DNA from: a virus
DNA: 64,000 bases
Reading direction: 5' to 3' (one strand)
Virus record (IMG/VR): IMGVR_UViG_3300014205_000232
Span: 675-64,674 of that record
In this document: positions 6,282-62,130 of the stretch, one piece after another
How positions within the stretch are numbered: position 1 is the first letter of the stretch
Layout of the letters: every line of letters begins with the position of its first letter
Notes under the pieces: generated by a model
What the model was told of the DNA's origin: nothing
Databases searched by the model: none
The model's input: the letters and a program-made list of their open reading frames with translations, nothing else
Made by a program: the position numbers and the translations under genes

Positions 6282-6310
6282 GATCATGCGTCCCCTGGCA
6301 CGAGTAGTGG
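6282..6310 (+). promoter_or_regulatory. conserved bipartite promoter-like motif (gatcatgcg N11 gagtagtgg)
   Basis: Box A and box B spacing and position upstream of RBS and ATG match the family consensus. Confidence 0.5.
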
Positions 6311-6328
6311 TAGGAGACGGAGGTCCTT

Positions 6329-7747
6329 ATGGACGTACTCATCGCGGGCGGAGCAAAGTCCCTAGTGTATGGGAACTTTGCTCGCAAGCTCGCAAAACAT
6401 GACATCAAGGTGGGATGGTACGTCTCACGCCAGGACGGGGCTTCGTTTAAGGGCATCCCCTCAGGGTGTGAGGGGGTGATCATCATCCGAGATCTGATCA
6501 GTCATTCCTTGTTTCACAAGATTTATCTTGGAGCCAAGGACGCCAACGTTCCTTTTGCTGCCGTCCCACGGAAATGGAGCCAAGCGTTTCCAGTTCTGAA
6601 ACTCCAGAACTTCATTGCTACCGCTCCCCCCATCAAAAACCCCCCCACAGCAGTGTCCTCCTCGGACGACGCTGTTTTTCAGTGTGCCCTCAAAGCTGAG
6701 CAAGAGAATAGGACCCCCTCGTTGGGGGAGGTGTATTCTTACGTTCGCTCCGTGACGGGTTCCATTGAAGGTGTAACTCAGTCCGCCATCCAAATGGCTT
6801 TGTCTAAAGTACGGGCTTTGCTGCCCTCCGACTCGACCTCATCCCTAGACACTTTGGAAGTAAGTGACGACATGCCGACACCAGATTACATGACGCTCAT
6901 GGAGAAACTGGCCATTGAGAACCCCGAGATCTTGAACAATCCCGATCTCTTGACCAAGAAACTCACACGGGACACGGTTATGAGCCCCGTCGCGGTGAGG
7001 GTCATGACCCCCAAACTGACAGCCCAGTTCTTGCAGCTTCTACGGAAGAACCCCAATGTTCGGGACCGCGTCATGCGTCCGTACTACATTCGTTGGTTCA
7101 AGACTCTGTCCCTGGACATGAAGCCCAAGGAGTGGGCTTCATTGACGACGATGTCATCCCAAGGGAAGAAGGTTTTCAAGGTCTCTCCTCTCCATGAGAC
7201 TCTGGCAAATGCCCGAGCTGAGGTCTTCGGGGAGTGGGCTCGGAAGTTGGATCGCAGGACGGAGTCGCACCAATATCTCAGGAGCGTCCGTCCTGATCTG
7301 AGCTTGGATCAGCTTCTGAAGGAGGGCAAGGTCAAGGGCTTCCCCGCTGGAAGGCGGAAGTTGACCTCCCCGGTTGCGGTGAGAGAGTACCTGGAGACCC
7401 TCGCTATGGAACAGAGTCCCCCCGCTGTCATCCCAAGCATTCCCACCACCCCCGCAGAACCTGTTGTTGTCAAGGTGACACCGACCGTAGAACCCGTTGT
7501 TGTCAAGGTGGTCCCGACAACCTCCGCCGATGACATGATCGCCATGGCGAGTATGATTGTTGACCAGGTACGGGAATTGGTGCTTCCCCTTAAGGCCCAA
7601 CTGGTTAAGATGCAGGCGGACCTGGATCGGATCTCTTGGGATCTGGAAAGGTTGAACAACCAACCTACCCCGACAGTCCCGACAACCTCCAACGATCTCA
7701 ACGGCTTCACCGTTACCGTGAGCATGAATCCGAAACAGGGGTCGTAA
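6329..7747 (+). CDS. hypothetical protein with N-terminal Rossmann-like region and internal tandem peptide repeat
   Basis: ORF track; promoter motif plus GGAGACGGAGG RBS upstream; coding 33-bp-like repeat EPVVVKVTPTV/EPVVVKVVPTT near 7455-7520; terminator follows. Confidence 0.55.
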   Translation: MDVLIAGGAKSLVYGNFARKLAKHDIKVGWYVSRQDGASFKGIPSGCEGVIIIRDLISHSLFHKIYLGAKDANVPFAAVPRKWSQAFPVLKLQNFIATAPPIKNPPTAVSSSDDAVFQCALKAEQENRTPSLGEVYSYVRSVTGSIEGVTQSAIQMALSKVRALLPSDSTSSLDTLEVSDDMPTPDYMTLMEKLAIENPEILNNPDLLTKKLTRDTVMSPVAVRVMTPKLTAQFLQLLRKNPNVRDRVMRPYYIRWFKTLSLDMKPKEWASLTTMSSQGKKVFKVSPLHETLANARAEVFGEWARKLDRRTESHQYLRSVRPDLSLDQLLKEGKVKGFPAGRRKLTSPVAVREYLETLAMEQSPPAVIPSIPTTPAEPVVVKVTPTVEPVVVKVVPTTSADDMIAMASMIVDQVRELVLPLKAQLVKMQADLDRISWDLERLNNQPTPTVPTTSNDLNGFTVTVSMNPKQGS

Positions 7748-7778
7748 CCCCCGGTTGAAAAAGAAACCCCCAAAGAAA

Positions 7779-7806
7779 AAGGCAGCCATGAGAGCTGCCT
7801 TTTTCT
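7779..7806 (+). terminator. rho-independent terminator
   Basis: aggcagcc-atgaga-gctgcct followed by ttttc. Confidence 0.6.
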
Positions 7807-8022
7807 TTGGTTAAGAGGGGCCTAGTTCCGTGCCAAAGACGCTCTGCGTTAGGAGTCTGGCCCCGGGATTAACGCGGGCTGGTTTTAGATGCTTGTTAGA
7901 TCCCTGTGCGCGGAGGACCCGGCGGTCTTTTTTGACGTTCTCTTTTTGCTCCCCCGCGAGAGCCAAAAGACGCGAGAAAAAGGGTTCCTCCAGCAGATGT
8001 CGATCCCCCCGATTGGATCGGG

Positions 8023-8724
8023 TTAAAGGGTCCTCCTGTGCATGTCCAAGAACAGGTCCGGCGGACTCAGATTCTGGATGCGTGCTGCAATAGCTTCGAT
8101 GGAAGAAGCCCGTGCCTCTGGGGTGTCCCGATCCTCATCCCAGGGCATGTCATAGACTACGACCCCCTGTTGCTTGAGTACCCCGACCATGTGATCGATC
8201 TCTCCGTCCAGTCCCCTCAGGTAGTCAAGGGACACGGCGGTCTCACACGTTCTACCGGTCTCTTTTTCCATTCTCTTCATGATACGACGCTGGGCCACCT
8301 CGGGTGAAACCAAAACCCGGAGGCAAACTGTGGGTAGAAGGACCGATGCGGTCATGGCATGATACAGAGTCTGGTAGGTATCAAACTCACGTTGGGACAT
8401 GAGCCCGTTTTTTAGTTGTAAACGGGCAAAAGCTGTGTCACCAAAGTAACTGCGATCCAAGACAGCATGCCCCTCACCCTGCAAAGCATGCCATTGGGCA
8501 TGTAAGTGCATGCGATAACGCATGGATAGCAAATGGGCTTGCATCGTGAAGGACCATCGTGAAGGATCCCGATAGTACTCTCCTAGGTAGGGATTGGCAT
8601 CATTTTTCTCATCCGGTTCTACCAGGACAAGGGTGCTGGCACCCAAAGCGGCCCCAAGTTCTCGGGTCAATGTGGTTTTTCCGCCCGAGATCAGACCTTC
8701 CACGATGACAACTTTTTTCTTCAC
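8023..8724 (-). CDS. deoxynucleoside kinase (dCK/dGK/dNK family)
   Basis: VVIVEGLISGGKTTL P-loop, LDRSYFGD (ERS-like) motif, RxxxR region; a + strand ORF covers the same span (7830..8093, 8038..8307), rejected as antisense. Confidence 0.8.
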   Translation of the reverse strand: MKKKVVIVEGLISGGKTTLTRELGAALGASTLVLVEPDEKNDANPYLGEYYRDPSRWSFTMQAHLLSMRYRMHLHAQWHALQGEGHAVLDRSYFGDTAFARLQLKNGLMSQREFDTYQTLYHAMTASVLLPTVCLRVLVSPEVAQRRIMKRMEKETGRTCETAVSLDYLRGLDGEIDHMVGVLKQQGVVVYDMPWDEDRDTPEARASSIEAIAARIQNLSPPDLFLDMHRRTL

Positions 8725-9844: not shown

Positions 9845-9845
9845 T

Positions 9846-9875
9846 GGATCATCCGGTGGTGTTTTTGAGTAGCTG
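9846..9875 (+). promoter_or_regulatory. promoter-like motif (ggatcatcc N12 gagtagctg)
   Basis: Directly after the upstream TGA; followed by GGAGG and ATG. Confidence 0.5.
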
Positions 9876-9889
9876 CCTTGGAGGTAACC

Positions 9890-28617: not shown

Positions 28618-29544
28618 ATGGCCAAGGTTTTAGTCCTCCGATCTTGTGGGGTGGACCTCACCTCGTTCAACGAGTTTCAATGGCCCGCCTCAGGACCTGT
28701 AGAGGCCCCAGACTGGGACCCGACACCCTTCTGTGGTCATGGTTTACATGGGCTGCTCTGGGGGGAGGGGGACCACGGTCATTTGGTGAGTGTCTTCCCT
28801 CAGAAATACCTCGTAGTCGAGGTAGAGGAGTCTGAGGTTGTAGCTATACCCCGATGGCAGCAAAACCGCATGGTCAAGTTTCCAAGAGGGAACGTTGTCT
28901 ACTGTGGTTCCAGGTCTGGGGCAGCCCAGTTCATTCAGCAGGCTCGACCTGAGGCCCAAGTCGCTGGACTGGTCCAGGTGGGGGAGGAGGCCAAGTCTTT
29001 CAACCTTGGTCTTTCGGTGGCCCTCGAGGGTTCTGCTGAGTCCGGTTTTGATGGGGTGGCGGTGGCTCTGAGGGGCTCGGCTACGGTCAAAACGGGCATG
29101 GCTCTGGCTGGCCACAACTGTCAAGCGGAGGCAGGATTCCAAGGGATCGCAGTTTCGGGAGAACATGGAAAGTCTCTCACAGGAGCTGAGGGTTTATCCG
29201 TATCCTCCTATCAGGGCCATGCAGCCTCAGGAACTTCGGGGGTCGCCGTTGGTGGCTCGGGGGCACAAACTAGTGCCGGGAGCTGGGGACTGGCGGTCAC
29301 GAGTGGTGTGCGTGGGCTTGCCAAGGTAGGGTACGGAGGGTTCGCCGTGGTAGGGCCTTACGGTTGGGCCTCAGCGGGGATGCATGGCACCATCCTGATT
29401 GGCGCGACGGAACAGGGGAGTCCACCTGTGATGTACAGGATGGGCCGCATAGGTGAGAACGGTTTGGAGCCTGATACCTACTACTCCCTGGACCATGAGA
29501 ACAATTTCATCTCCCAGGGATCATCTTTACCCACTCCTGAGTAG
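28618..29544 (+). CDS. Gly/Ala/Ser-rich repeat protein
   Basis: Degenerate GxAxxG repeats through the central region; ORF track. Confidence 0.5.
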   Translation: MAKVLVLRSCGVDLTSFNEFQWPASGPVEAPDWDPTPFCGHGLHGLLWGEGDHGHLVSVFPQKYLVVEVEESEVVAIPRWQQNRMVKFPRGNVVYCGSRSGAAQFIQQARPEAQVAGLVQVGEEAKSFNLGLSVALEGSAESGFDGVAVALRGSATVKTGMALAGHNCQAEAGFQGIAVSGEHGKSLTGAEGLSVSSYQGHAASGTSGVAVGGSGAQTSAGSWGLAVTSGVRGLAKVGYGGFAVVGPYGWASAGMHGTILIGATEQGSPPVMYRMGRIGENGLEPDTYYSLDHENNFISQGSSLPTPE

Positions 29545-29548
29545 TTTC
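29519..29548 (+). promoter_or_regulatory. promoter-like motif overlapping the upstream stop codon
   Basis: gatcatctt N11 gagtagtttc; TAG of the upstream gene lies inside box B. Confidence 0.5.
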
Positions 29549-29566
29549 AGCAATGGAGATTTCTGC

Positions 29567-29873: not shown

Positions 29874-29902
29874 GATCATCTGGGGCTGCTGTAGAGTAGC
29901 TC
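29874..29902 (+). promoter_or_regulatory. promoter-like motif (tandem unit 1)
   Basis: gatcatctggggctgctgtagagtagctc. Confidence 0.55.
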
Positions 29903-29933
29903 TAATGTAAGGAAACCGGAGCGGAGAACAACG

Positions 29934-30332
29934 ATGAGTGTCACTACGCAAACCATTGTGCACGTCGACCACGAGCCCGGCAAACTCGCCACCCGCGAGG
30001 ACGATGTTGCGATGGAAATCCTGGACGTAATGTTCAAGGTCCTTCTCGATCAGGGTCAGGTGATTCTTTGTGACCCGAAGGAGGCTCTCAACTCGAGGGT
30101 CCGGTTTCCAGGCGACAACTTGACGGACCGCCTCACGAGGTGGGTGGTGGGTCGCCGTCCCATGGGTGTCTCCTACAATCAGGTCCTGAGCTGGTTTGCT
30201 CTCAAGAGTTGCCGTTGCGTCCGGGTTGGCGTGCTTGCGGGCAGCTCGCCAACCCAGGTGCTGTGGGCGTCCCCAACGGGAGACGACCTGCTGCACCAGT
30301 TGCAAAAGGATCATCATCTGGGGCTGCTGTAG
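29934..30332 (+). CDS. hypothetical protein, tandem paralog 1
   Basis: Own promoter motif; N-terminal 75 residues alignable with the next gene (MSV..PG.LA.RED.VA..IL..MF..LL..G.V...DP.EAL.SRV..PG.NLTDRL..W). Confidence 0.55.
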   Translation: MSVTTQTIVHVDHEPGKLATREDDVAMEILDVMFKVLLDQGQVILCDPKEALNSRVRFPGDNLTDRLTRWVVGRRPMGVSYNQVLSWFALKSCRCVRVGVLAGSSPTQVLWASPTGDDLLHQLQKDHHLGLL

Positions 30333-30349
30333 AGTAGCTGTAAGGTAGA
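30309..30349 (+). promoter_or_regulatory. promoter-like motif (tandem unit 2; box A carries a 3-nt insertion)
   Basis: gatcatcatctggggctgctgtagagtagctgtaaggtag. Confidence 0.55.
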
Positions 30350-32023: not shown

Positions 32024-32060
32024 GATCATCTGGGGCCAACACAGAGTAGCTGTAAGGTAG
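32024..32060 (+). promoter_or_regulatory. promoter-like motif
   Basis: gatcatctggggccaacacagagtagctgtaaggtag. Confidence 0.55.
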
Positions 32061-32360: not shown

Positions 32361-32393
32361 CAGCAGAATCCGCTGAGCAAAGCTCCAACTGAG

Positions 32394-32422
32394 ATCATCT
32401 GATCACGCCCCAGAGTAGTCTC
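32394..32422 (+). promoter_or_regulatory. promoter-like motif
   Basis: gatcatctgatcacgccccagagtagtctc. Confidence 0.5.
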
Positions 32423-32441
32423 TATGTCAAAGGGAGGGACT

Positions 32442-32767: not shown

Positions 32768-32805
32768 TAATCATCGGGTCACGCCCCAGAGTAGCTGTGG
32801 TGTAG
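32768..32805 (+). promoter_or_regulatory. promoter-like motif (degenerate box A aatcatcgg)
   Basis: aatcatcgggtcacgccccagagtagctgtggtgtag. Confidence 0.45.
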
Positions 32806-33505: not shown

Positions 33506-34066
33506 ATGACACGTAAGAGTTCAGACCTGGAAAACTGTCGTCGCCACAGCCTCTTCGATGCCGAGGACAGTCTCACGCAAGCTCTGCGAATGGGCCTGCC
33601 CATGCTCAACATCGATGGATGGCTCGACTCAGACCTGAGTGAGACTTTTAGGTCTGAGGTCAAAGAGGCGCTGACCATTGTTTTCCAACAAGGTTTCGAT
33701 GCGCCCCATCCTCTGCCCGATGTGAACACCCGTTCGCCCGGTGACATTCGTGAAGGGGATGCCTTTTACAAGGCGTATGAGAGTTACGGTGCCCTTCACG
33801 TTGACACCTACAAGGTGATCGCGTCCAGCCCCGTCGCGCTGATCCTTCGCAAGGACGACCCCAATCAGCAGGAGTTGATTGACAATCACAACTGCATTGT
33901 GGTCCATCCGACACATTTGAGCAACCATGCTCTGCATGCCTCAAAGGAGTCCGCTCTTCGGGAAGTTCGAGAGGAGCTTCAAAAGCGCCTCCTTGCGCTG
34001 GACAACAACAGGATGAATGAGAGGAGCAAGCTCGAGCGTTTGCTCAATCAGATCAAGATCATCTGA
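33506..34066 (+). CDS. hypothetical protein
   Basis: ORF track; stop embedded in the next promoter box. Confidence 0.45.
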   Translation: MTRKSSDLENCRRHSLFDAEDSLTQALRMGLPMLNIDGWLDSDLSETFRSEVKEALTIVFQQGFDAPHPLPDVNTRSPGDIREGDAFYKAYESYGALHVDTYKVIASSPVALILRKDDPNQQELIDNHNCIVVHPTHLSNHALHASKESALREVREELQKRLLALDNNRMNERSKLERLLNQIKII

Positions 34067-34087
34067 GACTCGGGCAGAGTAGATGTC
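34057..34087 (+). promoter_or_regulatory. promoter-like motif
   Basis: gatcatctgagactcgggcagagtagatgt; upstream stop TGA inside box A. Confidence 0.5.
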
Positions 34088-34105
34088 TCGCCTAAGGAGG
34101 GACCA

Positions 34106-35177: not shown

Positions 35178-35515
35178 AGAGGGTGCTTTGGAGGGCCCAG
35201 ATCACGGAAAACGGGGACCTTCGGGTTCAGGAATTTCCGATTGTGCAGTGCGATGACAATGTTCCATACCCATGGGTTCGACTCCGAACCCTGGAAGTCC
35301 GTTGGGTACGATGCCCAAACGGCAAACCCGAGTACCCCTACGGATGGACCCGAGACTCCGCCCTTGGGGCTCTGCGTGAACATATCCAGTGCGAAATCCG
35401 GGACCTTGAGGACCGCAAGGCCAACTTTCTGAGAAATCTTGAGATCGGCCAGGCCCATTTGCTGAAGCAACTGGCAATCCTGAACGAAGGATCATGTCTC
35501 CCGAACCCCGAGTAG
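35174..35515 (+). CDS. hypothetical protein, tandem paralog b
   Basis: ATGA overlap with the previous gene; paralogous sequence. Confidence 0.45.
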   Translation: MKRVLWRAQITENGDLRVQEFPIVQCDDNVPYPWVRLRTLEVRWVRCPNGKPEYPYGWTRDSALGALREHIQCEIRDLEDRKANFLRNLEIGQAHLLKQLAILNEGSCLPNPE

Positions 35516-35544
35516 GGTTCCCGAATACGGGACCCAGGAACGTC

Positions 35545-36211: not shown

Positions 36212-36250
36212 GATCATGTTGGTCAGTGAGAGAGTAGCTGTGGGGTACGG
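36212..36250 (+). promoter_or_regulatory. promoter-like motif
   Basis: gatcatgttggtcagtgagagagtagctgtggggtac. Confidence 0.5.
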
Positions 36251-37777: not shown

Positions 37778-37807
37778 GATCATGTTGCCCCCTGGTAGAG
37801 TAGTTAG
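37778..37807 (+). promoter_or_regulatory. promoter-like motif with ~55-nt leader
   Basis: gatcatgttgccccctggtagagtagttag. Confidence 0.5.
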
Positions 37808-37859
37808 TGCACAAGACCCCTAAGGTAGAGGGTCAGACTTCCCACATGAGGATCAAGAC

Positions 37860-40764: not shown

Positions 40765-40777
40765 AGGACGGACTACT

Positions 40778-41023
40778 CTAAAAAGGAAATAGGGACGACC
40801 AGTCTTGGTCGCTTTCCTCTAGCTCCTCTGCCGTGTAGGGCGCTAACCTTCCCTCGGGGTCTTCTACCCACCAATGTCCCGGTGGGTAACCCTCAATGGG
40901 TGTAAGCACTCGTCCCGTGCCCTCTTTTCTGTTCAACAAGAAAGAGGGCACAGCAAGAATGCTACACGTCTCACCAGGACTGGTGAGAACTACTTTGTAA
41001 CGTCGAATGTCCTCAACCCGCAT
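40778..41023 (-). CDS. small hypothetical protein
   Basis: ORF track; 13-nt gap to the downstream gene. Confidence 0.4.
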   Translation of the reverse strand: MRVEDIRRYKVVLTSPGETCSILAVPSFLLNRKEGTGRVLTPIEGYPPGHWWVEDPEGRLAPYTAEELEESDQDWSSLFPF

Positions 41024-41260: not shown

Positions 41261-41280
41261 TGGGGCACCTCTTGGACATA

Positions 41281-41306
41281 CTACTCTACGCTATACCCAG
41301 ATGATC
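41281..41306 (-). promoter_or_regulatory. promoter-like motif driving the 41260 to 39542 minus-strand block
   Basis: Reverse complement gatcatctgggtatagcgtagagtag. Confidence 0.5.
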
Positions 41307-44320: not shown

Positions 44321-44343
44321 GATCAGCTCCTCGTCTTCCTTGT

Positions 44344-44369
44344 CTACTCAGATCCTCATCCTCATGATC
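44344..44369 (-). promoter_or_regulatory. promoter-like motif (minus strand) downstream of the endolysin
   Basis: Reverse complement gatcatgaggatgaggatctgagtagaca. Confidence 0.4.
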
Positions 44370-45510: not shown

Positions 45511-46335
45511 GTGACCCTGAGAGCCACCATAAAAGTACTCCTCATTGAGGATGACCAGGATGATGCTCGTCTCTTGATCGACCTGATGGGCGATTCAGAG
45601 CGGGCAACATTCATCGTGGACGTCACATACACGGCTCAAGGGGGTTTAGACTCCCTCTCTAAGGGACGATTTGACATTGTTCTTTTGGACTATAAGCTCC
45701 CAGACATGGATGGTCTGCAGGTGCTTCGGGAAATCGAACGCTTGCACTTTCAAATTCCAGTTATCATTGTCACCAGTTACGGGGACCGAAACATCCAAGC
45801 TCGGGCTCTTGAGGCTGGAGCTACCGAGTATCTGGAGAAAGGAACCATCACGTCAGACCTCTTGGAAAGGACTTGCCTGTACACCATCGGTCTAAATGAG
45901 AGGAAACGACCCAATGACTCGGGAGCTGACGTGGGGTCGTTGATCAGTCAACTAGTTGACTTGACACGAGAGTCAGTGAAATCTCAGACCCACAGTACTC
46001 AGGAAATCCGAGAGTTGAGGCGGGAACTAGCGGAGGGTCTTGGATCTTTCAAACAAGAGTTGAAGGAGAGTCAGATCAAAGCAGAACAGCGCAACAATAT
46101 AGTTGTTGGAGAGGTTAAAAACCTCTCCAAGTTCCGGTGGCTGCTTCAATGGATTACGGAGCACCCTACAGCCTCTGTTGTAATGTTTCTCTGCCTGATT
46201 CTGGCTGTTCTCTTCATGATCTTAGCACTTCAGATTCTGGACACCGAGAAGATCAAGCAGGTCAAGGACATCCTTGATGCCCCCGTTACTTTCCTGGTTC
46301 CTAACGAGGTGTCTTGGTGGATTGGACGCCCCTAA
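45511..46335 (+). CDS. response regulator: receiver domain plus coiled-coil plus C-terminal TM helix
   Basis: KVLLIEDDQDD, phospho-acceptor context IVLLDYKLPDMDGL, ...IIVTSYGD..., EAGATEYLEK; C-terminal hydrophobic VVMFLCLILAVLFMILAL. Confidence 0.75.
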   Translation: MTLRATIKVLLIEDDQDDARLLIDLMGDSERATFIVDVTYTAQGGLDSLSKGRFDIVLLDYKLPDMDGLQVLREIERLHFQIPVIIVTSYGDRNIQARALEAGATEYLEKGTITSDLLERTCLYTIGLNERKRPNDSGADVGSLISQLVDLTRESVKSQTHSTQEIRELRRELAEGLGSFKQELKESQIKAEQRNNIVVGEVKNLSKFRWLLQWITEHPTASVVMFLCLILAVLFMILALQILDTEKIKQVKDILDAPVTFLVPNEVSWWIGRP

Positions 46336-48122: not shown

Positions 48123-48577
48123 CACGACCTCTGAGTGTGATTTTTGCAGAGGACGACGATGAGGACTGGATCCTCATCGCTGACGTCATTGACTCCTGCC
48201 CCCTTAGGGACAAACTCACGTTGGAACGTGTCCGTGACGGCCAACAACTGTTGGACCGCCTACGGGACACGGACCTGCCCCATCCTGACGTTGTCCTCCT
48301 GGACATTCAAATGCCTCGGAAGAACGGCCTTGAGACTCTACTGGAAATGAGAGCAGAGGAGGCCCTCCGTTCAATCCCAGTGATCATACTGACCACATCA
48401 GAGGCTGAATCGGATGTCTTCCGATCCTATCAGAGTGGGGCCAACTCCTACGTGGTGAAACCCGGGAGTTCTGTTGAGGCCCTTCTGCATGCTCTCAAAA
48501 ACTACTGGGTGGGGGTATGTCGGATCCCAACCCCACGCCCTGCCCTGACACATCAGGTGAAACATGAAGAGCCTTGA
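48119..48577 (+). CDS. single-domain response regulator (CheY-like)
   Basis: SVIFAEDDDED, VVLLDIQMPRKNGL, IPVIILTTSEAE, GANSYVVKP; ATGA-coupled to the kinase. Confidence 0.8.
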   Translation: MTRPLSVIFAEDDDEDWILIADVIDSCPLRDKLTLERVRDGQQLLDRLRDTDLPHPDVVLLDIQMPRKNGLETLLEMRAEEALRSIPVIILTTSEAESDVFRSYQSGANSYVVKPGSSVEALLHALKNYWVGVCRIPTPRPALTHQVKHEEP

Positions 48578-48983
48578 GGCACTCCTTAAAATAGCGGCAC
48601 CTGGAGCTGAGGCCCTACGCCTGTTGTCCAAGGTGGAAGAGCTAATCAAGGAAAACACTTATCAGCAGGAACTGATGGACCTGCTGATAAGTAAAGGTGA
48701 GGCTCGTCGTCTGGGACGGCTCACTGACGTCAAGGTGACCACCTTTGCCCTGCAGGGCAACAAGATCCAAGCCCTGGTACAAGGAACATCTGGAGTGTAT
48801 CAGACGTCCATCACTTTGTCCCCTCGAGGGCATCGGTGTAGTTGCCCCGATTGGCTTCAAAATGGCCCCAAGGTGGGACCCTGCAAGCATGTTTTAGCCC
48901 TGGCCGTAGCTTGGCAAGAGGAACGACTAGGGCCCCAAATGGAGGCCCTAGTCGAAAATCTTTTGGTCACTCTGGGTTCTTAG
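48564..48983 (+). CDS. SWIM zinc-finger protein
   Basis: CSCPDWLQNGPKVGPCKHVLAL is a CxC...CxH SWIM signature; overlaps the upstream stop. Confidence 0.6.
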   Translation: MKSLEALLKIAAPGAEALRLLSKVEELIKENTYQQELMDLLISKGEARRLGRLTDVKVTTFALQGNKIQALVQGTSGVYQTSITLSPRGHRCSCPDWLQNGPKVGPCKHVLALAVAWQEERLGPQMEALVENLLVTLGS

Positions 48984-51165
48984 CTAGCTGACTATCCCTA
49001 ACCTCTTTCTTATAGCGATAGCCGCCGTTACTCAAACCCCTCTTGTGAGCCTCAATCTCTTGTTTGGCCTCCGCTTCCCAGTACTCTTGTTGCTGAAGAA
49101 GCCCCGCCATCAAAGCCTTGTAGTCGAAGGGACCTGTGCCAACAGGTTGCAAGATCCCGGGCCCCATTCTCCAAACATCTGAAAGGATCCGATCCGCATC
49201 GAATCCCTCCGCCAGTCCTTTGGCGACCAAGAATTCCTTGACCGTGTTGCGATGCTTTTGGAAAAGGGACGGCATCTTTCGATGCATCTCCACATAGTCC
49301 CGCACTACTTGGAGAGCCTCTTGACAGGCGGCCTTGATCAGGAGGAACTGGTTTTCCCCCTCCACAATCTTGGCCTCAGCAAGTTTCCGTTGCCACCAAG
49401 CGGCGTACTTCCGACCCTGGTCTTCAAACTCGGAGGCTTGGGCCAATTTTTGACCCGCAAGGGTCAAAAACAATGCTCCATCGGAGGGGCGCAGGTTCTC
49501 AAGATCCGTGTTGCTTTGGCCGGACTTGCTGGCAAAAAGGATCTCCACGGTGGCCCTCATCTGCTCAAAAGCAGCCTCAAGTCTCTTCTCCAGGATTTTC
49601 TGTGTGTCGCCCCCCGCTTGGTAGATGTCATGCATTTGCTTGAACTGGTTTTCCAGTTTGACACAACTTGCCTGAAGATTGTCCGCCTCGGCCAAGAGGC
49701 TCTTGGTCTGCAGGGACAGAGGAGGAGTCCTCGCCACCGTGAGCATGACACTCCAGTGACCTTGCACGGCGACCCAAGTGATCTCAGGGTTGTGCTCTGG
49801 CGGGAGATCTGAGGGTGCTACAAATTGAGTCATTCTCTGTTGGGCCTCAGCAAAATGCCGGGCCCCGGCTGCCATGATAGCCACCAGCTCAAAAACCCTC
49901 GCCCGGATCTTCTCCTCTTGCTCCCGATCCTTGTGGACCATGTCAGCAAACCCCACGGGGTCCAGCCTCAACACGTCCTCCTTTTCCTGCATGGCCTTCA
50001 CGGGGTCAGGATAGAGAAAATGGTCACTGATCCATTCATGGGACAACTGAGCGTGATCAAGTCGCGCCTCCAGCTCCATATAGCGTCCCGGGGGCAAGTA
50101 AGAGATTGCAGGCTTGCTCTTTCTCTCGATAGCAACTTCAAGACGAACCACCAGGGTGAGAAACTGCTGAATCTGGGCCCTTGTACCCCGGTCCTCACCC
50201 CGGAGGTTGTTCCAGACTTGACCCATCCGATGACGGTTGTTGTTTTTCAAGGTGCTGCTCAGACTTTGGTACCTCTCCGAGATTGAAAGCTCAAGCTGGG
50301 TCAGCAGGTCCGAGGCTTCCTTGAACAGGTTGTATGTGTTCCCCTTGGAGGCTACCAGAGTCTGCACCCCCTCCCACCGTGTGGTCAACTCGGGCAACTC
50401 AGTGAGGTACCAAGTGCTATACATCTGGTACAGTTCCGACAACTGCCGCCGACGGGACCTTTTATCCGCCACCATGGTGGAAATCATCATGATCAGCCAT
50501 CCAAAAAGGACCAACACGGCTACAGGACCCATTATGTAGATCAAGATCATAGGGTCGGCCTCATCCTTCTTGGGGTAGCTCTCAAAGAGGAGATCCGGGC
50601 TAGACTGTTTGGCCTTGATGGTCTCAGGGTCCGTGTGCTCAAAGAGGTACTTGTCCAGATCCTTCATCACACTGAGAATGGCCCTCGTGGGATCCTTGGG
50701 GGTGCCCGTCAAAACGGACCGGAAGGACCCCAAGAAATCAACCATGCGATCCTGGGTGAGGCTCAACTCCTTCTGCCAGCGTGACCCGGTCATCAGTCGG
50801 ATGTACCGGGGCTGATAGGAGAGCACAAAGAGCGACGATGTTTCCGGGTTGAAGAGCATGGGGTTCTTTTCCGCCCATGTGTTCCACACCCTCTCGGTGG
50901 CCTCAGTGATTTGGGCTAGGCCACTCTTTTGTTCCTCTTCTGGGGTCTCGATCTTGTCAAAGATCACCACGTAGAAGGGATGACGGGACTGAGATGCGAG
51001 TGCCTGTAGGGCAAGGATCCCGTCGTACTCAATCCCAGGGGGATGGAAACCTTCGGGTACGGTGTACACGAAAATGCCACCATGCAACGTGGGAACCTGG
51101 CTCTCGGCGAGAGCCGGACCAGCCCCCAGAAATAACATGGCAAAGCAAAGGGATAGAAACCGCAT
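48967..51165 (-). CDS. large membrane protein with signal peptide and TPM-like domain
   Basis: Start at MRFLSLCFAMLFLGAGPALA after minus-strand promoter motif and AGAGGAG RBS; TPM-like GIFVYTVPEG...FYVVIFDKIE; central TM LVLFGWLIMMI. Confidence 0.55.
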   Translation of the reverse strand: MRFLSLCFAMLFLGAGPALAESQVPTLHGGIFVYTVPEGFHPPGIEYDGILALQALASQSRHPFYVVIFDKIETPEEEQKSGLAQITEATERVWNTWAEKNPMLFNPETSSLFVLSYQPRYIRLMTGSRWQKELSLTQDRMVDFLGSFRSVLTGTPKDPTRAILSVMKDLDKYLFEHTDPETIKAKQSSPDLLFESYPKKDEADPMILIYIMGPVAVLVLFGWLIMMISTMVADKRSRRRQLSELYQMYSTWYLTELPELTTRWEGVQTLVASKGNTYNLFKEASDLLTQLELSISERYQSLSSTLKNNNRHRMGQVWNNLRGEDRGTRAQIQQFLTLVVRLEVAIERKSKPAISYLPPGRYMELEARLDHAQLSHEWISDHFLYPDPVKAMQEKEDVLRLDPVGFADMVHKDREQEEKIRARVFELVAIMAAGARHFAEAQQRMTQFVAPSDLPPEHNPEITWVAVQGHWSVMLTVARTPPLSLQTKSLLAEADNLQASCVKLENQFKQMHDIYQAGGDTQKILEKRLEAAFEQMRATVEILFASKSGQSNTDLENLRPSDGALFLTLAGQKLAQASEFEDQGRKYAAWWQRKLAEAKIVEGENQFLLIKAACQEALQVVRDYVEMHRKMPSLFQKHRNTVKEFLVAKGLAEGFDADRILSDVWRMGPGILQPVGTGPFDYKALMAGLLQQQEYWEAEAKQEIEAHKRGLSNGGYRYKKEVRDSQLAKNPE

Positions 51166-51191
51166 GGGAAACTCCTCTGGTGTCTGCACTA

Positions 51192-51241
51192 CCTACTCGG
51201 AAAAGAAAAACATGATCATGGTTGTGGGCTTGGAGTAGTTT
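51192..51241. promoter_or_regulatory. overlapping divergent promoter-like motifs sharing a palindromic CATGATCATG core
   Basis: +: gatcatggttgtgggcttggagtagtttcc; -: gatcatgtttttcttttccgagtagg. Confidence 0.45.
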
Positions 51242-51266
51242 CCTTGCCCAAAGAAAAAGAGGACCC

Positions 51267-51683
51267 ATGTCCATGCTACACGATATCAAGACCCGAGACG
51301 ATCTTACCGAATCCCTTCATGCGAGGGCCATGGACTATGCCCAGAGACGTGCAGTTCTGGAGAAGAATTGGGCCCTCCTTCTGAGAGAGGGCAATCTAAG
51401 ATCCGTGACCCTGGAGGAGGGTCGTGACGATCTCGTGGTTCTCCTATTCGAGTGCGCCTTCATGGGTGACGTCTGGGACGATAGTCGAAGTGTTCCCCTA
51501 CGGCACTTTGAAGTCGAGCCCTCTGTTTGGACAGCAGAACTCAAAGCGCAAATGTTGGAGCAAGAACGACTGATGGCCGAACGGGAGAAGAAGGCCGTCA
51601 CTGAGAGGGAGGCCCGTATGAAGAGGGACTTGATTGCCAAGGCCAAGGCTCTAGGGCTCACTGCCGAGGATCTCAAAGAATGA
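51267..51683 (+). CDS. hypothetical protein
   Basis: Promoter motif and AAAGAGGA RBS; start could instead be Met18 (51273). Confidence 0.4.
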   Translation: MSMLHDIKTRDDLTESLHARAMDYAQRRAVLEKNWALLLREGNLRSVTLEEGRDDLVVLLFECAFMGDVWDDSRSVPLRHFEVEPSVWTAELKAQMLEQERLMAEREKKAVTEREARMKRDLIAKAKALGLTAEDLKE

Positions 51684-52823: not shown

Positions 52824-52850
52824 GATCATCTCGACCTTTCTAGAGTAGTG
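52824..52850 (+). promoter_or_regulatory. promoter-like motif upstream of ligA
   Basis: gatcatctcgacctttctagagtagtg, then AAAGGAGA and ATG. Confidence 0.5.
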
Positions 52851-52870
52851 TAAGGGTAAAGGAGATCCCT

Positions 52871-54946
52871 ATGTTGGACCTTGTGGCACGCCTGGAAAAG
52901 GCTCGAAACGACTACTACAACGGCAACCCGACTATGTCGGATGCCCAGTACGACGCCCTCGAAGACGAGTTGCGCAAGCAGAACCCCAACCATCCTTTCC
53001 TGGCCAAGGTGGGATCTCCGGTCCCCCAGAATGGCGCTTGGGCCAAGACCAAGCATGCCATTCCCATGGGGAGCCTGAACAAGGCTCAGGTGGACACCGA
53101 GATCTCTGACTGGCTGAAGGGTTGTTCCTACAAGGCGGGTGAGGCACTCACGATCACTGACAAGTGCGACGGCATTAGTCTTGCCCTGCACTATCGGGAC
53201 CGCAAAATGGTCCAGGCAGTCACCCGTGGGGACGGTCTCGTAGGTGAGGACATCACCCGTAACGTCCTGCTGATGAAGGGGTTCCCCAAGGTACTCCCCC
53301 CGACCCTGTTCGCCGAGAGTGGTCCCTTCCAGACCCCGAATGACGTGTACATTCGGGGTGAGATCATCGTGACCCACACGGACTTCGACACCTTTTTCAA
53401 GGGTGAGTCGAATCCCCGAAACACCGCCTCGGGAACGGCCAAGCGTCAGTCGGATGCGGCCAAGTGCGCGCACCTCACGGTCCTCTGCTACCAGCTCCTG
53501 CCCAACGGGGTCACCTATGGCAAGAAGCAAGAGGAGCTGAAGGCTCTTCAGACGGCCGGCTTCCAGACCCCACAGGTCAAGGTGTGCCACTCGGTGGCTG
53601 AGGTTTTCGATCGGTACGAGAACTACGTAGCCAAGGACCGCAAGGCTCTTGACTATGACATTGACGGGCTGGTCATTGATATCGACAGCACCCCCGAGCG
53701 AGATCGGCTTGGGGATCTCAACGGGCGGCCCAAGGGCAGCATCGCTTTCAAGTTCCCTCATGAGTCGAAGGCTACGGTGCTCCGGGCAATCCGGTGGCAG
53801 GTCGGAAACAGCGGACGAATCACTCCGGTGGCCGAGTTTGACACCGTGTCCCTGGCGGGAGCCAACGTGTCCCAGGCCAGCCTGCACAACATCTCGAACA
53901 TCGACGCCCTTGTGGCCATGATCGGACAGCAGTTTTTTGCAAGTGGCGACAAGATCCGGGTCAGCCGCCGAAATGACGTGATCCCCTACGTGGAAGAGGC
54001 CCTTGAGGCTTACCAGGGGGCCGACGTAGACAGCAAGGTCCTCAAGACTCCGACCAACTGTCCCGCATGTGCCGGCAAGTTGGAGCGAGACGGTGAGTAC
54101 CTCGTTTGTCGCAATGAGGAATGCAGCGCCCAGGCCACGGGGGCACTTCGCCGGTGGGTCAAGAAGATCGGGGTCCTTCACGTTGGCGACAGCCTGTTGG
54201 AGGCAATGGCGGCAGCTTTCCCTTTCATCCTGACGGAGGCTGAGTTTGAGTCCCGCTTCGGTGTGAAGCAGAAGGACTTCACCACGCTCCCCGCCGACCG
54301 ACAGGAAGTGATTGCCGCCTCGGTTATGGATCCGGCGGACCTCTACTGCCTGGACGTGGACGCTGTGGCAGCCCTGGATACGGGCGGACGCCGTGTGGGT
54401 GGCACGGCCGACAAGGCGATCGGCAACCTCATGGCGAAAATGACCATGCCCCTTCAGGTGGTTGTGGGGTCCATTGGGATCCCGCTCATCGGGCGGGATA
54501 TGACCAAGACGATCATTGACGCCGGATACAACAGCCTGAGCCTCATGCTTAAGGCAAGGGTCACCTCCCCCCTGCACCTTCCTGACCGGATTCTCCCGGG
54601 TCTGGCCTCTATCCCCGGAGTGGGTGACACCAAGGCCAAGGCTTTTGTGGAAGGCTTTGAAGCCAAGGTCGGGCTGCTGGCCAAGCTGAACGCAGTTGGT
54701 GTGCGGGTGCAGACAGTCAAGGGCCCCCTGGTGGGTAAGAGCTTCTGCCTGACGGGTTTCCGTGACGCGGCCCTTACGGACGCTCTGGAGCTTGCTGGTG
54801 GTACGGTCAAGAGCAGTGTGTCCAAGGGTTTGGATTTCCTGATTGCCGCAGACCCCAACAGCAACACGGGGAAGGCCCAGACTGCCCGAAAGCTGGGGAC
54901 CAAGGTGATCGGGGTTGACGAGGCTCGCACCATGGCGGGGCTGTGA
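52871..54946 (+). CDS. ligA: NAD-dependent DNA ligase
   Basis: Adenylation motif TDKCDGISL (KxDG), OB and Zn-finger CPACAGKL...CRNEEC, HhH region, C-terminal BRCT FCLTGF...; the antisense 583-aa ORF is rejected. Confidence 0.9.
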   Translation: MLDLVARLEKARNDYYNGNPTMSDAQYDALEDELRKQNPNHPFLAKVGSPVPQNGAWAKTKHAIPMGSLNKAQVDTEISDWLKGCSYKAGEALTITDKCDGISLALHYRDRKMVQAVTRGDGLVGEDITRNVLLMKGFPKVLPPTLFAESGPFQTPNDVYIRGEIIVTHTDFDTFFKGESNPRNTASGTAKRQSDAAKCAHLTVLCYQLLPNGVTYGKKQEELKALQTAGFQTPQVKVCHSVAEVFDRYENYVAKDRKALDYDIDGLVIDIDSTPERDRLGDLNGRPKGSIAFKFPHESKATVLRAIRWQVGNSGRITPVAEFDTVSLAGANVSQASLHNISNIDALVAMIGQQFFASGDKIRVSRRNDVIPYVEEALEAYQGADVDSKVLKTPTNCPACAGKLERDGEYLVCRNEECSAQATGALRRWVKKIGVLHVGDSLLEAMAAAFPFILTEAEFESRFGVKQKDFTTLPADRQEVIAASVMDPADLYCLDVDAVAALDTGGRRVGGTADKAIGNLMAKMTMPLQVVVGSIGIPLIGRDMTKTIIDAGYNSLSLMLKARVTSPLHLPDRILPGLASIPGVGDTKAKAFVEGFEAKVGLLAKLNAVGVRVQTVKGPLVGKSFCLTGFRDAALTDALELAGGTVKSSVSKGLDFLIAADPNSNTGKAQTARKLGTKVIGVDEARTMAGL

Positions 54947-55414: not shown

Positions 55415-55600
55415 GGGGAGACGGTTAGGGGTTCAGCGGGCTAATGGCTTAAGGCGCGACCTGATCCGAGGGATGACTACCCACGGGGAGGGGACAAGCC
55501 ACCACACCAGAGACACCTAGTCAGTGTTTACCGGGTGGGAGAGTACCCCGATAAGAGGGAGGTCCAGGTGGAAATCCTGGGTGGCCCGCTGAGCCCCTAA
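55413..55600 (+). ncRNA. candidate structured non-coding RNA
   Basis: ~280-nt ORF-free gap. Transcription would start at the 55384 motif. 14-bp closing helix ggggttcagcgggc (55427-55440) pairs with gcccgctgagcccc (55583-55596) with one G-U. Internal hairpin ccaggtggaaatcctgg. Confidence 0.35.
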
Positions 55601-55616
55601 CCAATCCCAACTTAGT

Positions 55617-55650
55617 TGATCATCTCGGCCTCGTTCAGAGTAGTAGTCAT
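55617..55650 (+). promoter_or_regulatory. promoter-like motif
   Basis: gatcatctcggcctcgttcagagtagtagtcatgtag. Confidence 0.5.
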
Positions 55651-55694
55651 GTAGGGGGAACAACCCCCAGGGCAAATGACCCAAGGAAACGAAC

Positions 55695-56153
55695 ATGGAC
55701 ACTCAGATTTTTCGAGACCTGGAGTCGGGACTGTGGAACGAGATCAATCCCGACAAGTGCCCGTGCCAGGGGAACGGCTGGATCCTGAGTGACTGGGATA
55801 CTTGGCATCGGTGCCAGAGGCACGGTGTCAACGTGCCTCACCCGGAGGAAGAGGCCGAATTCAACGTTAAGGCCCACCGCCTGAACCTCTACCGCGATGC
55901 CTTCCGCCAGTACAAGGTCGCGGCTGAGCGCCTGGGTCTGAGGGGGACTTTCAAGGACGCCTGCCTTGCCCACCTGAAGGGGCCGGGCCCCTCAGCTGGT
56001 CCCTCGGCCTGGGTTGCAGCGGCCGAGAAGGTCTTTGTGGAGCTGGGGCAGGCCCGTGCGGACGAAGAGGCAACCCGCCAGGGTTTCAGCTGCGCCCTGG
56101 AGGCCAGCTGGGCTGACGAGGCTGAAAACGACCGGCGGGAAGCCGGTCTCTAA
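55695..56153 (+). CDS. hypothetical protein with Cys/His cluster
   Basis: Promoter motif with a long leader; CPCQGNGW...WHRCQRHG. Confidence 0.45.
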   Translation: MDTQIFRDLESGLWNEINPDKCPCQGNGWILSDWDTWHRCQRHGVNVPHPEEEAEFNVKAHRLNLYRDAFRQYKVAAERLGLRGTFKDACLAHLKGPGPSAGPSAWVAAAEKVFVELGQARADEEATRQGFSCALEASWADEAENDRREAGL

Positions 56154-56160: not shown

Positions 56161-57489
56161 ATGGATAATCATTGTGGATTCACGGGAACTCGTGAAACCC
56201 TGACGGAGGCTCAAAGAACCACCCTGAAAGTGGTTCTTTTGGCACTCAAAGGTCGGGGATTTACACACCTCCATCATGGGGACTGCAAAGGCGCTGATGC
56301 GTCGGCAGACGCTCTTGCCTTAGAGTTGGGTCTTTTGCGGGTCTCTCACCCCCCAGATATCAACACCCTGCGGGCCTACTGTAAAGCGGAGGAGGTCCGT
56401 ACCCCAAAGGCTTACCTGACACGCAACGCAGATATTGTGGCTGAGTCCGCTGTCATGGTGGCTTGCCCCCGTGACATGACGGAGACTCAAAGGTCAGGCA
56501 CTTGGTCCACCATCCGCTTAGCTAGGAAGAAGGGGGTCAAGTTGTTGATCATCCTGCCTAGCGGGCAAGTCAAGGGGGGTGATCATGTCAGCCCCCCTCC
56601 GAGTAGTACTCCAGTACCAGAAACACTTCCCCCTCAGGTTTTTCAGATGGCAAAAAAGATCCAGATGACACCACGGCACACGGACAAGTACGTCGTGATG
56701 TTCCTATCCTATGGGGCCAATCGTCCGGCATACGGAAATGCTCGGGACGTGGCCATTGGGGACGTCCTCACCTATTTTGAGGAGAGCCGTTTCACGACCC
56801 AGGTCGTGTCCTCAGTGAACGCCGTCGGGTGCAAGGTGGCCCCCATGGTGGTAGGTGACTTCGTTGTGGCTGACGCCGCTACCGTCACCTACGACTCGTT
56901 CTACGAGATCTTGCGGCCCAGGACTTCGATCAGTGGAGACCTGACACCACCTGCCCCTCTCGAAATCGAGGAGGAGGAAGAGGTCACCGAGGATGAAACG
57001 GAGGACGATGAGATCGTAGTGGTGGAGCCAACCCCGGTGGTCGAGAGCACCGAGCCCGAAGAAGACATGCCGGTCGAGACCCCCGTTGAGGAAGAAGACC
57101 CCTCAGTCGAGACCCCCGTTGAGGAGGAGACCCCCATTGAACCTGAGGTAGCGGAGATTGAGGTCCCCGTTGTGCCCCAGGTGGCGGCACCGCCGAGTCC
57201 CGTTGAGGCACCAAAAGTCAAGGCTCCCAAGGCTGACCCGAAGCCCAAGGGGACGGAGGAAAGGGACCCCCGACTCCCCCCCGCGGGCCACTTTTTGGTG
57301 GTCCCCCAGAAGGGTTCGGCTCGGCCCTCGGCGACCCTCGATATGGTCACGGTCCTTGAACAGGGCTTCGAGTATCAGGGAATCTTCTACAAGTCCCTCT
57401 CGGGTCTGGCCAAGACTATCACGGGGAAGGGGGTCAATGGTTTTGCCCACTTCAACCTGACGGAGCCCTGGGTAGACAAGGAGAACTGA
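56161..57489 (+). CDS. protein with N-terminal SLOG/DUF2493-like Rossmann domain and acidic Pro/Glu/Val repeat C-terminus
   Basis: Start at Met50 of the ORF-track frame (MDNHCGFTGTRE...HHGDCKGADA); 33-bp coding tandem repeats PVETPVEEE; an internal promoter motif lies at the domain boundary. Confidence 0.5.
   Translation: MDNHCGFTGTRETLTEAQRTTLKVVLLALKGRGFTHLHHGDCKGADASADALALELGLLRVSHPPDINTLRAYCKAEEVRTPKAYLTRNADIVAESAVMVACPRDMTETQRSGTWSTIRLARKKGVKLLIILPSGQVKGGDHVSPPPSSTPVPETLPPQVFQMAKKIQMTPRHTDKYVVMFLSYGANRPAYGNARDVAIGDVLTYFEESRFTTQVVSSVNAVGCKVAPMVVGDFVVADAATVTYDSFYEILRPRTSISGDLTPPAPLEIEEEEEVTEDETEDDEIVVVEPTPVVESTEPEEDMPVETPVEEEDPSVETPVEEETPIEPEVAEIEVPVVPQVAAPPSPVEAPKVKAPKADPKPKGTEERDPRLPPAGHFLVVPQKGSARPSATLDMVTVLEQGFEYQGIFYKSLSGLAKTITGKGVNGFAHFNLTEPWVDKEN
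56581..56609 (+). promoter_or_regulatory. intragenic promoter-like motif
   Basis: gatcatgtcagcccccctccgagtagtac inside the 56161..57489 reading frame. Confidence 0.35.
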
Positions 57490-60937: not shown

Positions 60938-61041
60938 CTTTTGTGCTCCTCAAGGGCCTGGGTTCCACTAGGTGGCTTATCAAGCTCGTAGGTAGGTACG
61001 AGCGAGGTCTTAGGCGACGTAGTCCAGAATCCATGTAACCC

Positions 61042-62046
61042 TTGAGGTTCCCTTTGGAGACATTCAGACAAACGCTTAAGTTTCCCGATGCCGCAATTCT
61101 GAAGAAGGCCGTTGGTCCAGAGCAGTGCAACCTACATGCTCTGGCTGAATCTGCTTGTGTCAAGATTCACCACCAATCGCGTCGTCTTGTGATTGAGGCT
61201 GAACATGAGTTGGATCTCGCGAAGGCCATAGGCTTGGTGGATCAGTTGATCCGGCGGGCAAAGGAAGGAAAGGAGACTCTACCTAGGGCGGTTAAACACA
61301 TGGCAAATCTGAAAAGGACCTCGGAGTCGGACACCTCAGTAGTCAAGCCCAAGACCGAAGGCCAGCGTGAATACCTGGACGTCATTCGCAGGCACGACAT
61401 GGTGTTTGGACTGGGACCGGCGGGCACAGGAAAAACGTTTCTGGCCGTAGCTGAGGCCGTCAAGGCTCTGCAGCAAAATAAGGTCAGTCAGTTGATCCTC
61501 ACTCGTCCCGCGGTTGAGGCGGGTGAGCGGCTCGGGTTCCTACCTGGAACGGCACAGGAGAAGGTGGACCCTTACCTCCAGCCGCTCTTTGACTCTCTCA
61601 TCAAGTTGTTGGGCAAGAGTCAGGTCGAGGCCATGCGTAAGAAGGGCACCATTGAGTTGGCCCCTATCGCCTTCATGAGAGGCCGGACCCTCGAGAATGC
61701 CTTTGTGCTCTTGGACGAGGCTCAGAACTGCACGTTCGAGCAGTTGATGATGTTGATCACCCGGTTGGGTGAGGGTTCCAAGTGTGTTGTGACGGGTGAC
61801 GCATCCCAGGTAGACTTGGATCGGACTCGCAGCGGGTTGGTTGAAATGGTCCATGTCCTTCAGGACGTGGAGGGCATTGGGACCTGTTTCCTCACGGCAG
61901 ATGACGTTGTGCGTCACCCCCTGGTGACTCGTATCGTGACCGCCGTTGAGAAGTACCAGGCAGAGAAGCCCGGTGCCCGTGAGAACCCCAACCTCAAGAG
62001 GGAGTACCCCAAGAGCAAGAAGCGGGATGACTATCCTCCCTACTGA
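61042..62046 (+). CDS. phoH: PhoH-like ATPase
   Basis: Walker A GPAGTGKT, LTRPAVEAGERLGFLPG, LLDEAQN, VVTGDASQVDL; apparent TTG start; terminator follows. Confidence 0.85.
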   Translation: MRFPLETFRQTLKFPDAAILKKAVGPEQCNLHALAESACVKIHHQSRRLVIEAEHELDLAKAIGLVDQLIRRAKEGKETLPRAVKHMANLKRTSESDTSVVKPKTEGQREYLDVIRRHDMVFGLGPAGTGKTFLAVAEAVKALQQNKVSQLILTRPAVEAGERLGFLPGTAQEKVDPYLQPLFDSLIKLLGKSQVEAMRKKGTIELAPIAFMRGRTLENAFVLLDEAQNCTFEQLMMLITRLGEGSKCVVTGDASQVDLDRTRSGLVEMVHVLQDVEGIGTCFLTADDVVRHPLVTRIVTAVEKYQAEKPGARENPNLKREYPKSKKRDDYPPY

Positions 62047-62069
62047 AACTTGAGGGTCTGAGAATGTAA

Positions 62070-62098
62070 AAAGGGCTTCCGAGAGGAGGCCCTTTTTA
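62070..62098 (+). terminator. rho-independent terminator after phoH
   Basis: gggcttcc-gaga-ggaggccc followed by tttttatt. Confidence 0.6.
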
Positions 62099-62101
62099 TT
62101 C

Positions 62102-62130
62102 GATCATCTGGTGCTATGTTGGAGTAGTAC
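62102..62130 (+). promoter_or_regulatory. promoter-like motif
   Basis: gatcatctggtgctatgttggagtagtac, then AGGAG and ATG. Confidence 0.5.

Follow-up and report, generated by a model that had tools for sequence, protein, structure and literature searches.

A bipartite GATCAT-N14-GAGTAG element, most likely a promoter, in a metagenomic contig of an uncultivated huge phage

Hardly any regulation has been mapped in the huge phages for which metagenomes are the only source. Here, we report a bipartite element, GATCAT (box A) and GAGTAG (box B) separated by 14 nucleotides (N14), that recurs on both strands of a 64,000-nucleotide (nt) stretch of viral DNA (IMG/VR virus record IMGVR_UViG_3300014205_000232, positions 675 to 64,674; hereafter the window, with positions counted from its first letter). 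The element is genuine and is most likely a promoter of an uncultivated giant (huge) phage. We hold with high confidence that it is a promoter, and we consider it probable that this promoter is read by a phage-encoded sigma factor of the extracytoplasmic function (ECF) type.

The window contains 23 exact copies of GATCAT-N14-GAGTAG, against about 0.006 expected from base composition. When one mismatch in box A and a 13-nt spacer (N13) were allowed, 28 sites were found between 6282 and 62138 (21 on the plus strand, 7 on the minus strand), 3 of them with N13. An earlier reading of the letters by a model (the sequence-only reading) had noted about 30 copies of a conserved two-box element on both strands, which agrees with this count, and the consensus it gave matches that of the aligned window sites, GATCAT(c/g)Tgg..c.......GAGTAG(ctgt)...(R)TA. 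Both hexamers are essentially invariant and the bases between them unconserved; counting from the first G of GAGTAG, a purine stands at +14 in 25/25 sites and an A at +16 in 20/25. A weight-matrix scan gave 25 sites above 20 bits, and 20 Markov shuffles of the window gave 0 to 3 matches each, even at a low 8-bit threshold. When all gapped 5-mer pairs (gaps of 10 to 19 nt) were counted, the top pair was ATCAT-N14-GAGTA (25 copies), which shows that the motif can be recovered without prior knowledge. The strong signal is the pair and not the single boxes: box B alone (GAGTAGCTGT, one mismatch allowed) was found 14 times against 2.5 expected, and box A alone (GATCATCTG) 32 times against 17. The long exact pattern GATCATCTG-N11-GAGTAGCTGT returned only single chance matches from viral and genome collections. 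As to short words in general, GATC (400) and CATG (403) are over-represented in the window and CTAG (76), GCGC (88), and CGCG (74) are rare; avoidance of GATC was ruled out, as mononucleotide composition predicts 244.

All 28 copies are oriented with the local gene direction. At 26 of them, the first G of GAGTAG lies 23 to 62 nt from a start codon that is preceded by a GGAG-type ribosome site (for the 55618 copy, the distance was taken to the ATG at 55695); one of the remaining two heads a structured non-coding stretch, and the other lies within an open reading frame (ORF). Every minus-strand copy faces a minus-strand gene, as had been noted, and back-to-back outward pairs occupy the divergent junctions at 25172-25270 (20 bp apart) and 51182-51249 (common box A), the latter being the overlapping divergent pair with a shared palindrome, CATGATCATG, of the sequence-only reading. 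The stop codon of the upstream gene falls inside or beside the motif at 8/28 sites and is the TAG of box B at 3, so that the earlier remark on stop codons embedded in the boxes was fair, and its "frequently" overstated. The copies are as follows.

6282..6318, plus strand: 25.3 bits; GATCAT-N14-GAGTAG before a 472-aa ORF (6329-7747)
9847..9883, plus strand: 33.8 bits; T-run ahead of box B; before 9890-10090 and the ADP-ribosylglycohydrolase gene
22400..22436, minus strand: 43.7 bits; box B TAG is the stop of 22411-23001; before cREC_REC and macro-domain genes
23706..23742, minus strand: 38.5 bits; before 23011-23679; motif also at the ortholog in related locus L218
23986..24022, minus strand: 41.5 bits; before 23748-23963
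25172..25208, minus strand: 32.1 bits; left half of a divergent pair; before 24893-25150
25234..25270, plus strand: 41.1 bits; right half of the divergent pair; before 25287-25469
25837..25873, plus strand: 35.4 bits; TGA of the upstream gene overlaps box A; before the PARP/WGR gene (25886-27529)
29519..29555, plus strand: 30.8 bits; box B TAG is the stop of 28783-29544
29874..29910, plus strand: 44.0 bits; before 29934-30332
30312..30348, plus strand: 39.6 bits; box A is CATCAT; before the paralog 30375-30803
32024..32060, plus strand: 42.5 bits; before 32082-32360
32393..32429, plus strand: 33.3 bits; before 32442-32744
32769..32805, plus strand: 34.4 bits; box A is AATCAT; before 32826-33149
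34057..34093, plus strand: 33.4 bits; before 34106-34366
35490..35526, plus strand: 20.4 bits; box B TAG is the stop of 35174-35515
36212..36248, plus strand: 36.6 bits; before 36274-36696
37778..37814, plus strand: 33.4 bits; before 37860-38759; motif also at the ortholog in L199
38813..38849, plus strand: 38.0 bits; before 38873-39127
41270..41306, minus strand: 24.3 bits; at a divergent junction; before 41033-41260
44333..44369, minus strand: 20.3 bits; at a divergent junction; before 44186-44320
51182..51217, minus strand: N13; before a 732-aa gene (48967-51165); box A common to the 51214 copy via CATGATCATG
51214..51249, plus strand: N13; before 51267-51683
52824..52859, plus strand: N13; before the NAD-dependent DNA ligase gene (52871-54946); motif also at the ligase ortholog in L158
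55385..55421, plus strand: 26.9 bits; no downstream ORF; heads the structured non-coding stretch
55618..55654, plus strand: 43.8 bits; before a 152-aa ORF (55695-56153); two hairpins in the leader
56581..56617, plus strand: 32.2 bits; within ORF 56161-57489, where a proline-rich linker joins two domains
62102..62138, plus strand: 35.4 bits; before 62157-62354

The same boxes are conserved in relatives. A scan of IMG/VR for both boxes returned several viral contigs (28 to 217 kb) with many copies each, more than 100 sites in all, whose proteins are 40 to 57% identical to those of the window (ligase, 57%; release factor, 56%; ThyX, 52%). Their consensus is gGGATCATCt-N12-GAGTAG-N5-GTG, with twelve essentially invariant positions across the >100 sites. 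Over all fetched loci, 256 distinct sites were collected and the spacer was 14 nt in 249/256, a count biased by the N14 pattern with which the loci were fetched, most sites not being seeds. The motif is kept at the orthologous position for the ligase gene and two other genes, and it heads tRNA clusters, with the 5' end of the mature tRNA 21 nt further on in L172 (tRNA-Ser) and 27 nt further on in L059 (tRNA-Arg). Because it precedes protein genes and tRNA genes alike, it acts on transcription and not on translation; because the tRNA in L172 starts 21 nt after the first G of GAGTAG, the start site must lie within those 21 nt. RNA-level explanations were considered for the window and rejected (no complementary arms, no Rfam match, no tRNA), as was a general 5'-leader hairpin (mean z, +0.38).

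The sequence-only reading had also held that the box spacing does not resemble sigma-70 -35/-10 geometry, which was wrong: the distance from GATCAT to the TAG within GAGTAG is 17 bp, compatible with the sigma-70 family. With the T of GAGTAG set as -12, GATCAT occupies -35 to -30, the spacer is 17 bp, and the A conserved 16 nt on from the first G of GAGTAG falls near +1. This 17-bp distance is the sole agreement with the housekeeping hexamers (TTGACA-N17-TATAAT), and the 14-bp unconserved spacer does not fit a T7-type promoter, which is one contiguous block of ~20 bp over the start site. Scanning two 20-kb stretches (20-60 kb) for the TTGACA/TATAAT consensus gave 4 and 3 sites against 5.5 and 6.5 expected, one of which overlaps a motif copy (9/12 match, the second hexamer being box A at 44369); with canonical sites at or below chance, the gaps carry no other recognisable promoter signal. 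A fixed, unconserved 14-bp spacer between two hexamers is typical of promoters for alternative and ECF sigma factors; the sigma-B promoter of Bacillus subtilis (GTTTAA-N14-GGGTAT) shows the hexamer-N14-hexamer layout of alternative sigmas. Such a pair of boxes, held rigidly apart by a free spacer, points to a reader with two domains.

The layout also bears on the idea that the boxes are repressor or activator sites overlapping the true promoters. The model for this is the stoperators of cluster A mycobacteriophages (the gp71 sites of L5), single asymmetric sites of 13 to 14 bp that block elongation inside operons. In favour of this idea, the element resembles them in occurring as tens of oriented copies within short intergenic gaps, some of which lie over upstream stop codons, and its two boxes are alike (GAnnAnCTG) at a distance of two helical turns. 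Its sites, however, are bipartite and stand ahead of tRNA clusters, outward pairs sit exactly where divergent genes need promoters, no other promoter-like signal is present in the gaps, and the rigid N14 two-hexamer layout matches sigma recognition; we regard operator sites of this kind as highly improbable.

A candidate reader was found in the relatives. Searching ~2 Mb of fetched loci revealed, in two motif-bearing contigs, a 216-aa ORF that weakly matches sigma region 4. HMMER, run exhaustively against 1.84 billion representatives, added only six relatives at E <1e-7, giving a family of seven proteins (P0001 to P0007) of roughly 200 aa. Word-indexed homology searches returned almost only their own queries, single-protein searches yielded nothing new, no member reaches any Pfam threshold, and the two members tested (P0001 and P0007) had no match in deposited phages. 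In the PDB, a profile built from all seven members matched mostly sigma factors, including the top three hits, and the best alignment covers regions 2 and 4; hhalign against Escherichia coli RpoE gave 90.7% probability over the same regions. AlphaFold, run with the 7-row alignment, returned two confident helical domains (predicted local distance difference test [pLDDT] score, 71.7), with which the top 50 Foldseek matches were all sigma factors, ECF first, at probabilities up to 0.99; a model from a single sequence was useless (pLDDT, 38.5). Profile and predicted structure thus point to an ECF-type two-domain sigma that was previously unannotated.

Gene order and sequence variation connect this family with the element. 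The sigma gene adjoins the NAD ligase gene in four lineages. In L232, GATCAT-N14-GAGTAG directly precedes it, and in L158/L237 and L230 the nearest motif copy is found upstream of it in the same orientation, with only ORFs between, which implies an operon; a sigma gene behind a promoter of its own type was found in relatives only. A 418-kb phage with the most diverged sigma homologue (24% identity) carries GCTTAC-N14-GCGTAG instead (9 copies per 20 kb); GATCAT/GAGTAG is absent from this phage, and GCTTAC-N14-GCGTAG is absent from the window. L233 has an intermediate motif, GCTTAG-N14-GAGTAG. The lineage variants indicate that a GNTNAN-N14-GNGTAG architecture is kept and that the specificity bases change along with the sigma.

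That the phage sigma gene lies downstream of the motif in three lineages would also suit a host sigma as the reader (an alternative one, or a primary one with an unusual phylum consensus), the phage sigma then serving a later class. Such wiring is known from sigma cascades like that of Bacillus phage SPO1, and the window itself has yielded no sigma. We judge this arrangement unlikely: the motif is wholly unlike the near-universal TTGACA/TATAAT consensus, becomes GCTTAC/GCGTAG in a related phage in step with divergence of the phage sigma, and has twelve near-invariant positions over >100 sites, as is typical of a phage-specific factor.

Under the reading that we prefer, a phage-encoded ECF-type sigma, the element would be the main promoter of an uncultivated huge-phage clade and would be read by host core RNA polymerase carrying this two-domain sigma. 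Sigma domain 4 would contact GATCAT as the -35 box and domain 2 would contact GAGTAG as the -10 box, and transcription would start at the conserved purine-T-A, ~13 to 16 nt on from the first G of GAGTAG. The transcript would begin with a short leader carrying the Shine-Dalgarno site. Once started, the system would reinforce itself, as the sigma gene follows a promoter of this type.

Several points weigh against this reading. In the ~82 kb of readable DNA of the window's phage, which comprises the window, 10 kb on its right from a sister strain (NCBI metagenome-assembled genome), and 7.6 kb on its left, searches turned up neither a sigma (phmmer with RpoD, SigF, RpoE, or the new-family profile) nor a gene for an RNA polymerase; since, in addition, start sites are predicted only, we infer the link between sigma and motif, and the window's phage would have to encode its sigma elsewhere. 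The slot beside the ligase gene, syntenic with that of the sigma gene in relatives, holds other genes in the window. No recurring dyad was detected in 20 kb of the P0006 lineage. Shared phylogeny alone could account for the co-variation of sigma and motif, positive feedback from a sigma gene behind its own promoter type would need a trigger, and a cascade in which another factor reads the motif and the sigma reads a later class fits equally well. The window motif also lacks the hallmark bases of ECF promoters, AAC in the -35 box and CGT in the -10 box, CGTA being present only in the distant GCGTAG variant. Of the readers proposed earlier, a phage-specific sigma is well supported, in that an ECF-type sigma is encoded by motif-bearing relatives; the window itself yielded neither a sigma nor an RNA polymerase gene.

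The partial reading of the genome leaves room for a phage RNA polymerase (single subunit, or split multisubunit and phiKZ-like), possibly delivered with the virion; an injected enzyme would explain how the programme starts, and one weak match to a phiKZ virion protein was seen. We nevertheless find this very unlikely. No polymerase was seen in the ~82 kb or among the ten largest ORFs tested of a 188-kb relative, and two hexamers with a free spacer differ from the known promoters of such enzymes, which are contiguous for single-subunit polymerases and short single elements for phiKZ and AR9. DFDGD motifs, taken as a possible sign of a polymerase, led in four of five ORFs to one 263-aa HNH endonuclease; the contig of the fifth ORF (4316 aa, L044) has just one match to the two-box motif.

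An extended form of the sigma reading, to which we give an even chance, is that an unrecognised family of phage ECF-like sigmas, missing from deposited phage genomes and scoring under all Pfam thresholds, drives a self-reinforcing programme through GNTNAN-N14-GNGTAG promoters in a clade of huge phages and has co-diversified with them into mutually exclusive pairs (GATCAT/GAGTAG, GCTTAG/GAGTAG, and GCTTAC/GCGTAG).

Bacterial ECF (group 4) promoters include those of E. coli sigma-E (GGAACTT-N16-TCAAA) and B. subtilis sigma-W (TGAAAC-N16-CGTA). The proposed system is like them in its two-domain sigma, two short boxes, rigid spacer, and sigma gene behind its own promoter, and the GCGTAG variant contains CGTA; it differs in the AAC and CGT missing from the window boxes, in having no anti-sigma partner in sight, and in a sigma below every Pfam threshold. 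The closest experimentally tested system is Salmonella phage 7-11, in which the phage sigma gp47, highly diverged and acting on host core polymerase, reads late promoters GTAAtg-N16-aCTA at eight promoters genome-wide, with starts 6 to 9 bp downstream (PMC8948821). Both systems have a bipartite phage-specific consensus and a diverged phage sigma with host core polymerase, the latter as a proposal here, whereas phage 7-11 has its own boxes and N16, compared with N14 between hexamers and 28 copies in 64 kb here against its eight per genome; the two sigma families have no detectable sequence match in GenBank phages. The consensus likewise differs between the related phages 7-11 and phiEco32 as the sigma diverges (PMC8948821). 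In phiEco32, middle and late promoters of gp36 are a single element, tAATGTAtA, and gp36 is without region 4 and needs no -35 box (PMC8948821). It too is a phage sigma with its own consensus, and its single-element layout resembles a T-run class of sites in the window (below), whereas the family described here has a confident region 4 helix-turn-helix and most sites here have a -35 box. The type, a phage sigma with a phage promoter, is already known; new here are the consensus and the sigma family, in an unstudied clade.

The motif provides a direct map of transcription units for the whole clade, predicts starts within a few bases, and exposes non-coding genes. The sigma candidate is small and assayable without phage culture. 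If the pairing is true, the lineage variants are natural orthogonal sigma-promoter sets, ready-made as orthogonal expression parts, and a case study of sigma and promoter specificity drifting together.

The analysis confirms the box-B-only variants that had been noted beside the two-box copies (T-run plus GAGTAG). The pattern TTTT(N)G(A/G)GTAG is present at 8 separate places in the window (11 overlapping pattern matches against 0.32 expected), 5 of them in its first 21 kb; 7/8 lie 14 to 36 nt upstream of a start codon, and 6/8 are without an exact box A. Sites of the latter kind would probably use the same -10 contact. Five variant sites are given here.

1254..1290, minus strand: 9.1 bits; degenerate box A (GATCCG), T-run, and GGGTAG; before an RNase T-like gene (669-1241)
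1292..1303, plus strand: T-run and GAGTAG without box A; before 1327-2031
5481..5491, plus strand: T-run and GGGTAG without box A; before the thymidine kinase gene (5523-6083)
20657..20671, plus strand: T-run and GAGTAGCTGT without box A; before 20687-21421
40773..40783, minus strand: T-run and GAGTAG without box A; before 40195-40764

Two paralogous gene pairs in the window (29934-30332/30375-30803 and 20687-21421/23011-23679) have a promoter copy for each gene, with near-identical spacers (for example, ctggggctgctgta, which occurs twice); gene and promoter appear to have been duplicated together as one unit.

The copy at 55385 is followed by a candidate phage non-coding RNA of ~185 nt (55418-55603, plus strand). 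Its predicted fold is multi-branched with a 21-bp closing stem (minimum free energy, -92.3 kcal/mol; z of -4.6 against shuffles). The sequence is identical in the sister strain, and searches gave no Rfam match and no homologue in more distant relatives. The internal copy at 56581-56617 is full-scoring and in frame, in a linker that joins an N-terminal domain to a C-terminal part with DUF2924 at its end. In relatives, a small ORF of its own encodes the DUF2924 part, and this copy may be an internal promoter left by a gene fusion. About 15% of the relatives' promoters have a hairpin, GGGG-CAAATGA-CCCC, at the predicted 5' end (e.g., L237 1390-1460, L133, and L152), as do leaders in L230, and in the 418-kb phage GGGC-ACGGACGAT-GCCC takes this position; in the window, such a hairpin was found only after the 55618 promoter (55659-55682). 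It may serve as a stabiliser or as the target of a regulator.

The window belongs to a huge-phage-like metagenomic contig and corresponds, in reverse orientation, to bases 1-64000 of a 97.7-kb contig in ENA (ERZ27247358, k141_1446628). Pfam and PHROG scans identified thymidine kinase, deoxynucleoside kinase, thymidylate kinase, ThyX, PhoH, and NAD-dependent ligase, together with PARP/WGR, macro, ADP-ribosylglycohydrolase, and RF-1 domains, an amidase, and a histidine kinase with three receiver proteins. Megablast against deposited phage genomes found no nucleotide match for the window, and LR745208.1, to which there was one weak protein match, had no shared dyad over 41 kb. The right flank (10 kb, sister strain) holds seven further motif copies and the left flank (7.6 kb; primase and intein-bearing PolA) none; the family A DNA polymerase of the left flank (L010 1840-6090, 1416 aa) is interrupted by a LAGLIDADG domain, probably an intein.

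Genes related to ADP-ribose are dense, with PARP and WGR, a second WGR protein, a macro domain, ADP-ribosylglycohydrolase, and NADAR, and a further PARP in the left flank (window 10090-11019, 21405-22001, 25886-27529, and 44443-45498; L007 1101-1571; L010 1-706). Alongside them are two cREC_REC receivers and a HAD domain of the kind in "Swiss army knife" RNA repair proteins. A two-component set (window 45511-48577) consists of a PAS histidine kinase (46314-48122) between two receiver-domain proteins, one of which has a C-terminal membrane segment. The window also encodes a homologue of class I peptide release factors (19835-20494, minus strand; PCRF and RF-1 domains), which relatives and the 418-kb phage share. 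The 192-nt gap between this gene and the divergent 20687-21421 contains a tandem direct repeat of ~26 nt (TTCCCTCCTATCGAGGGAACCTTGGTG) at window ~20548-20601.

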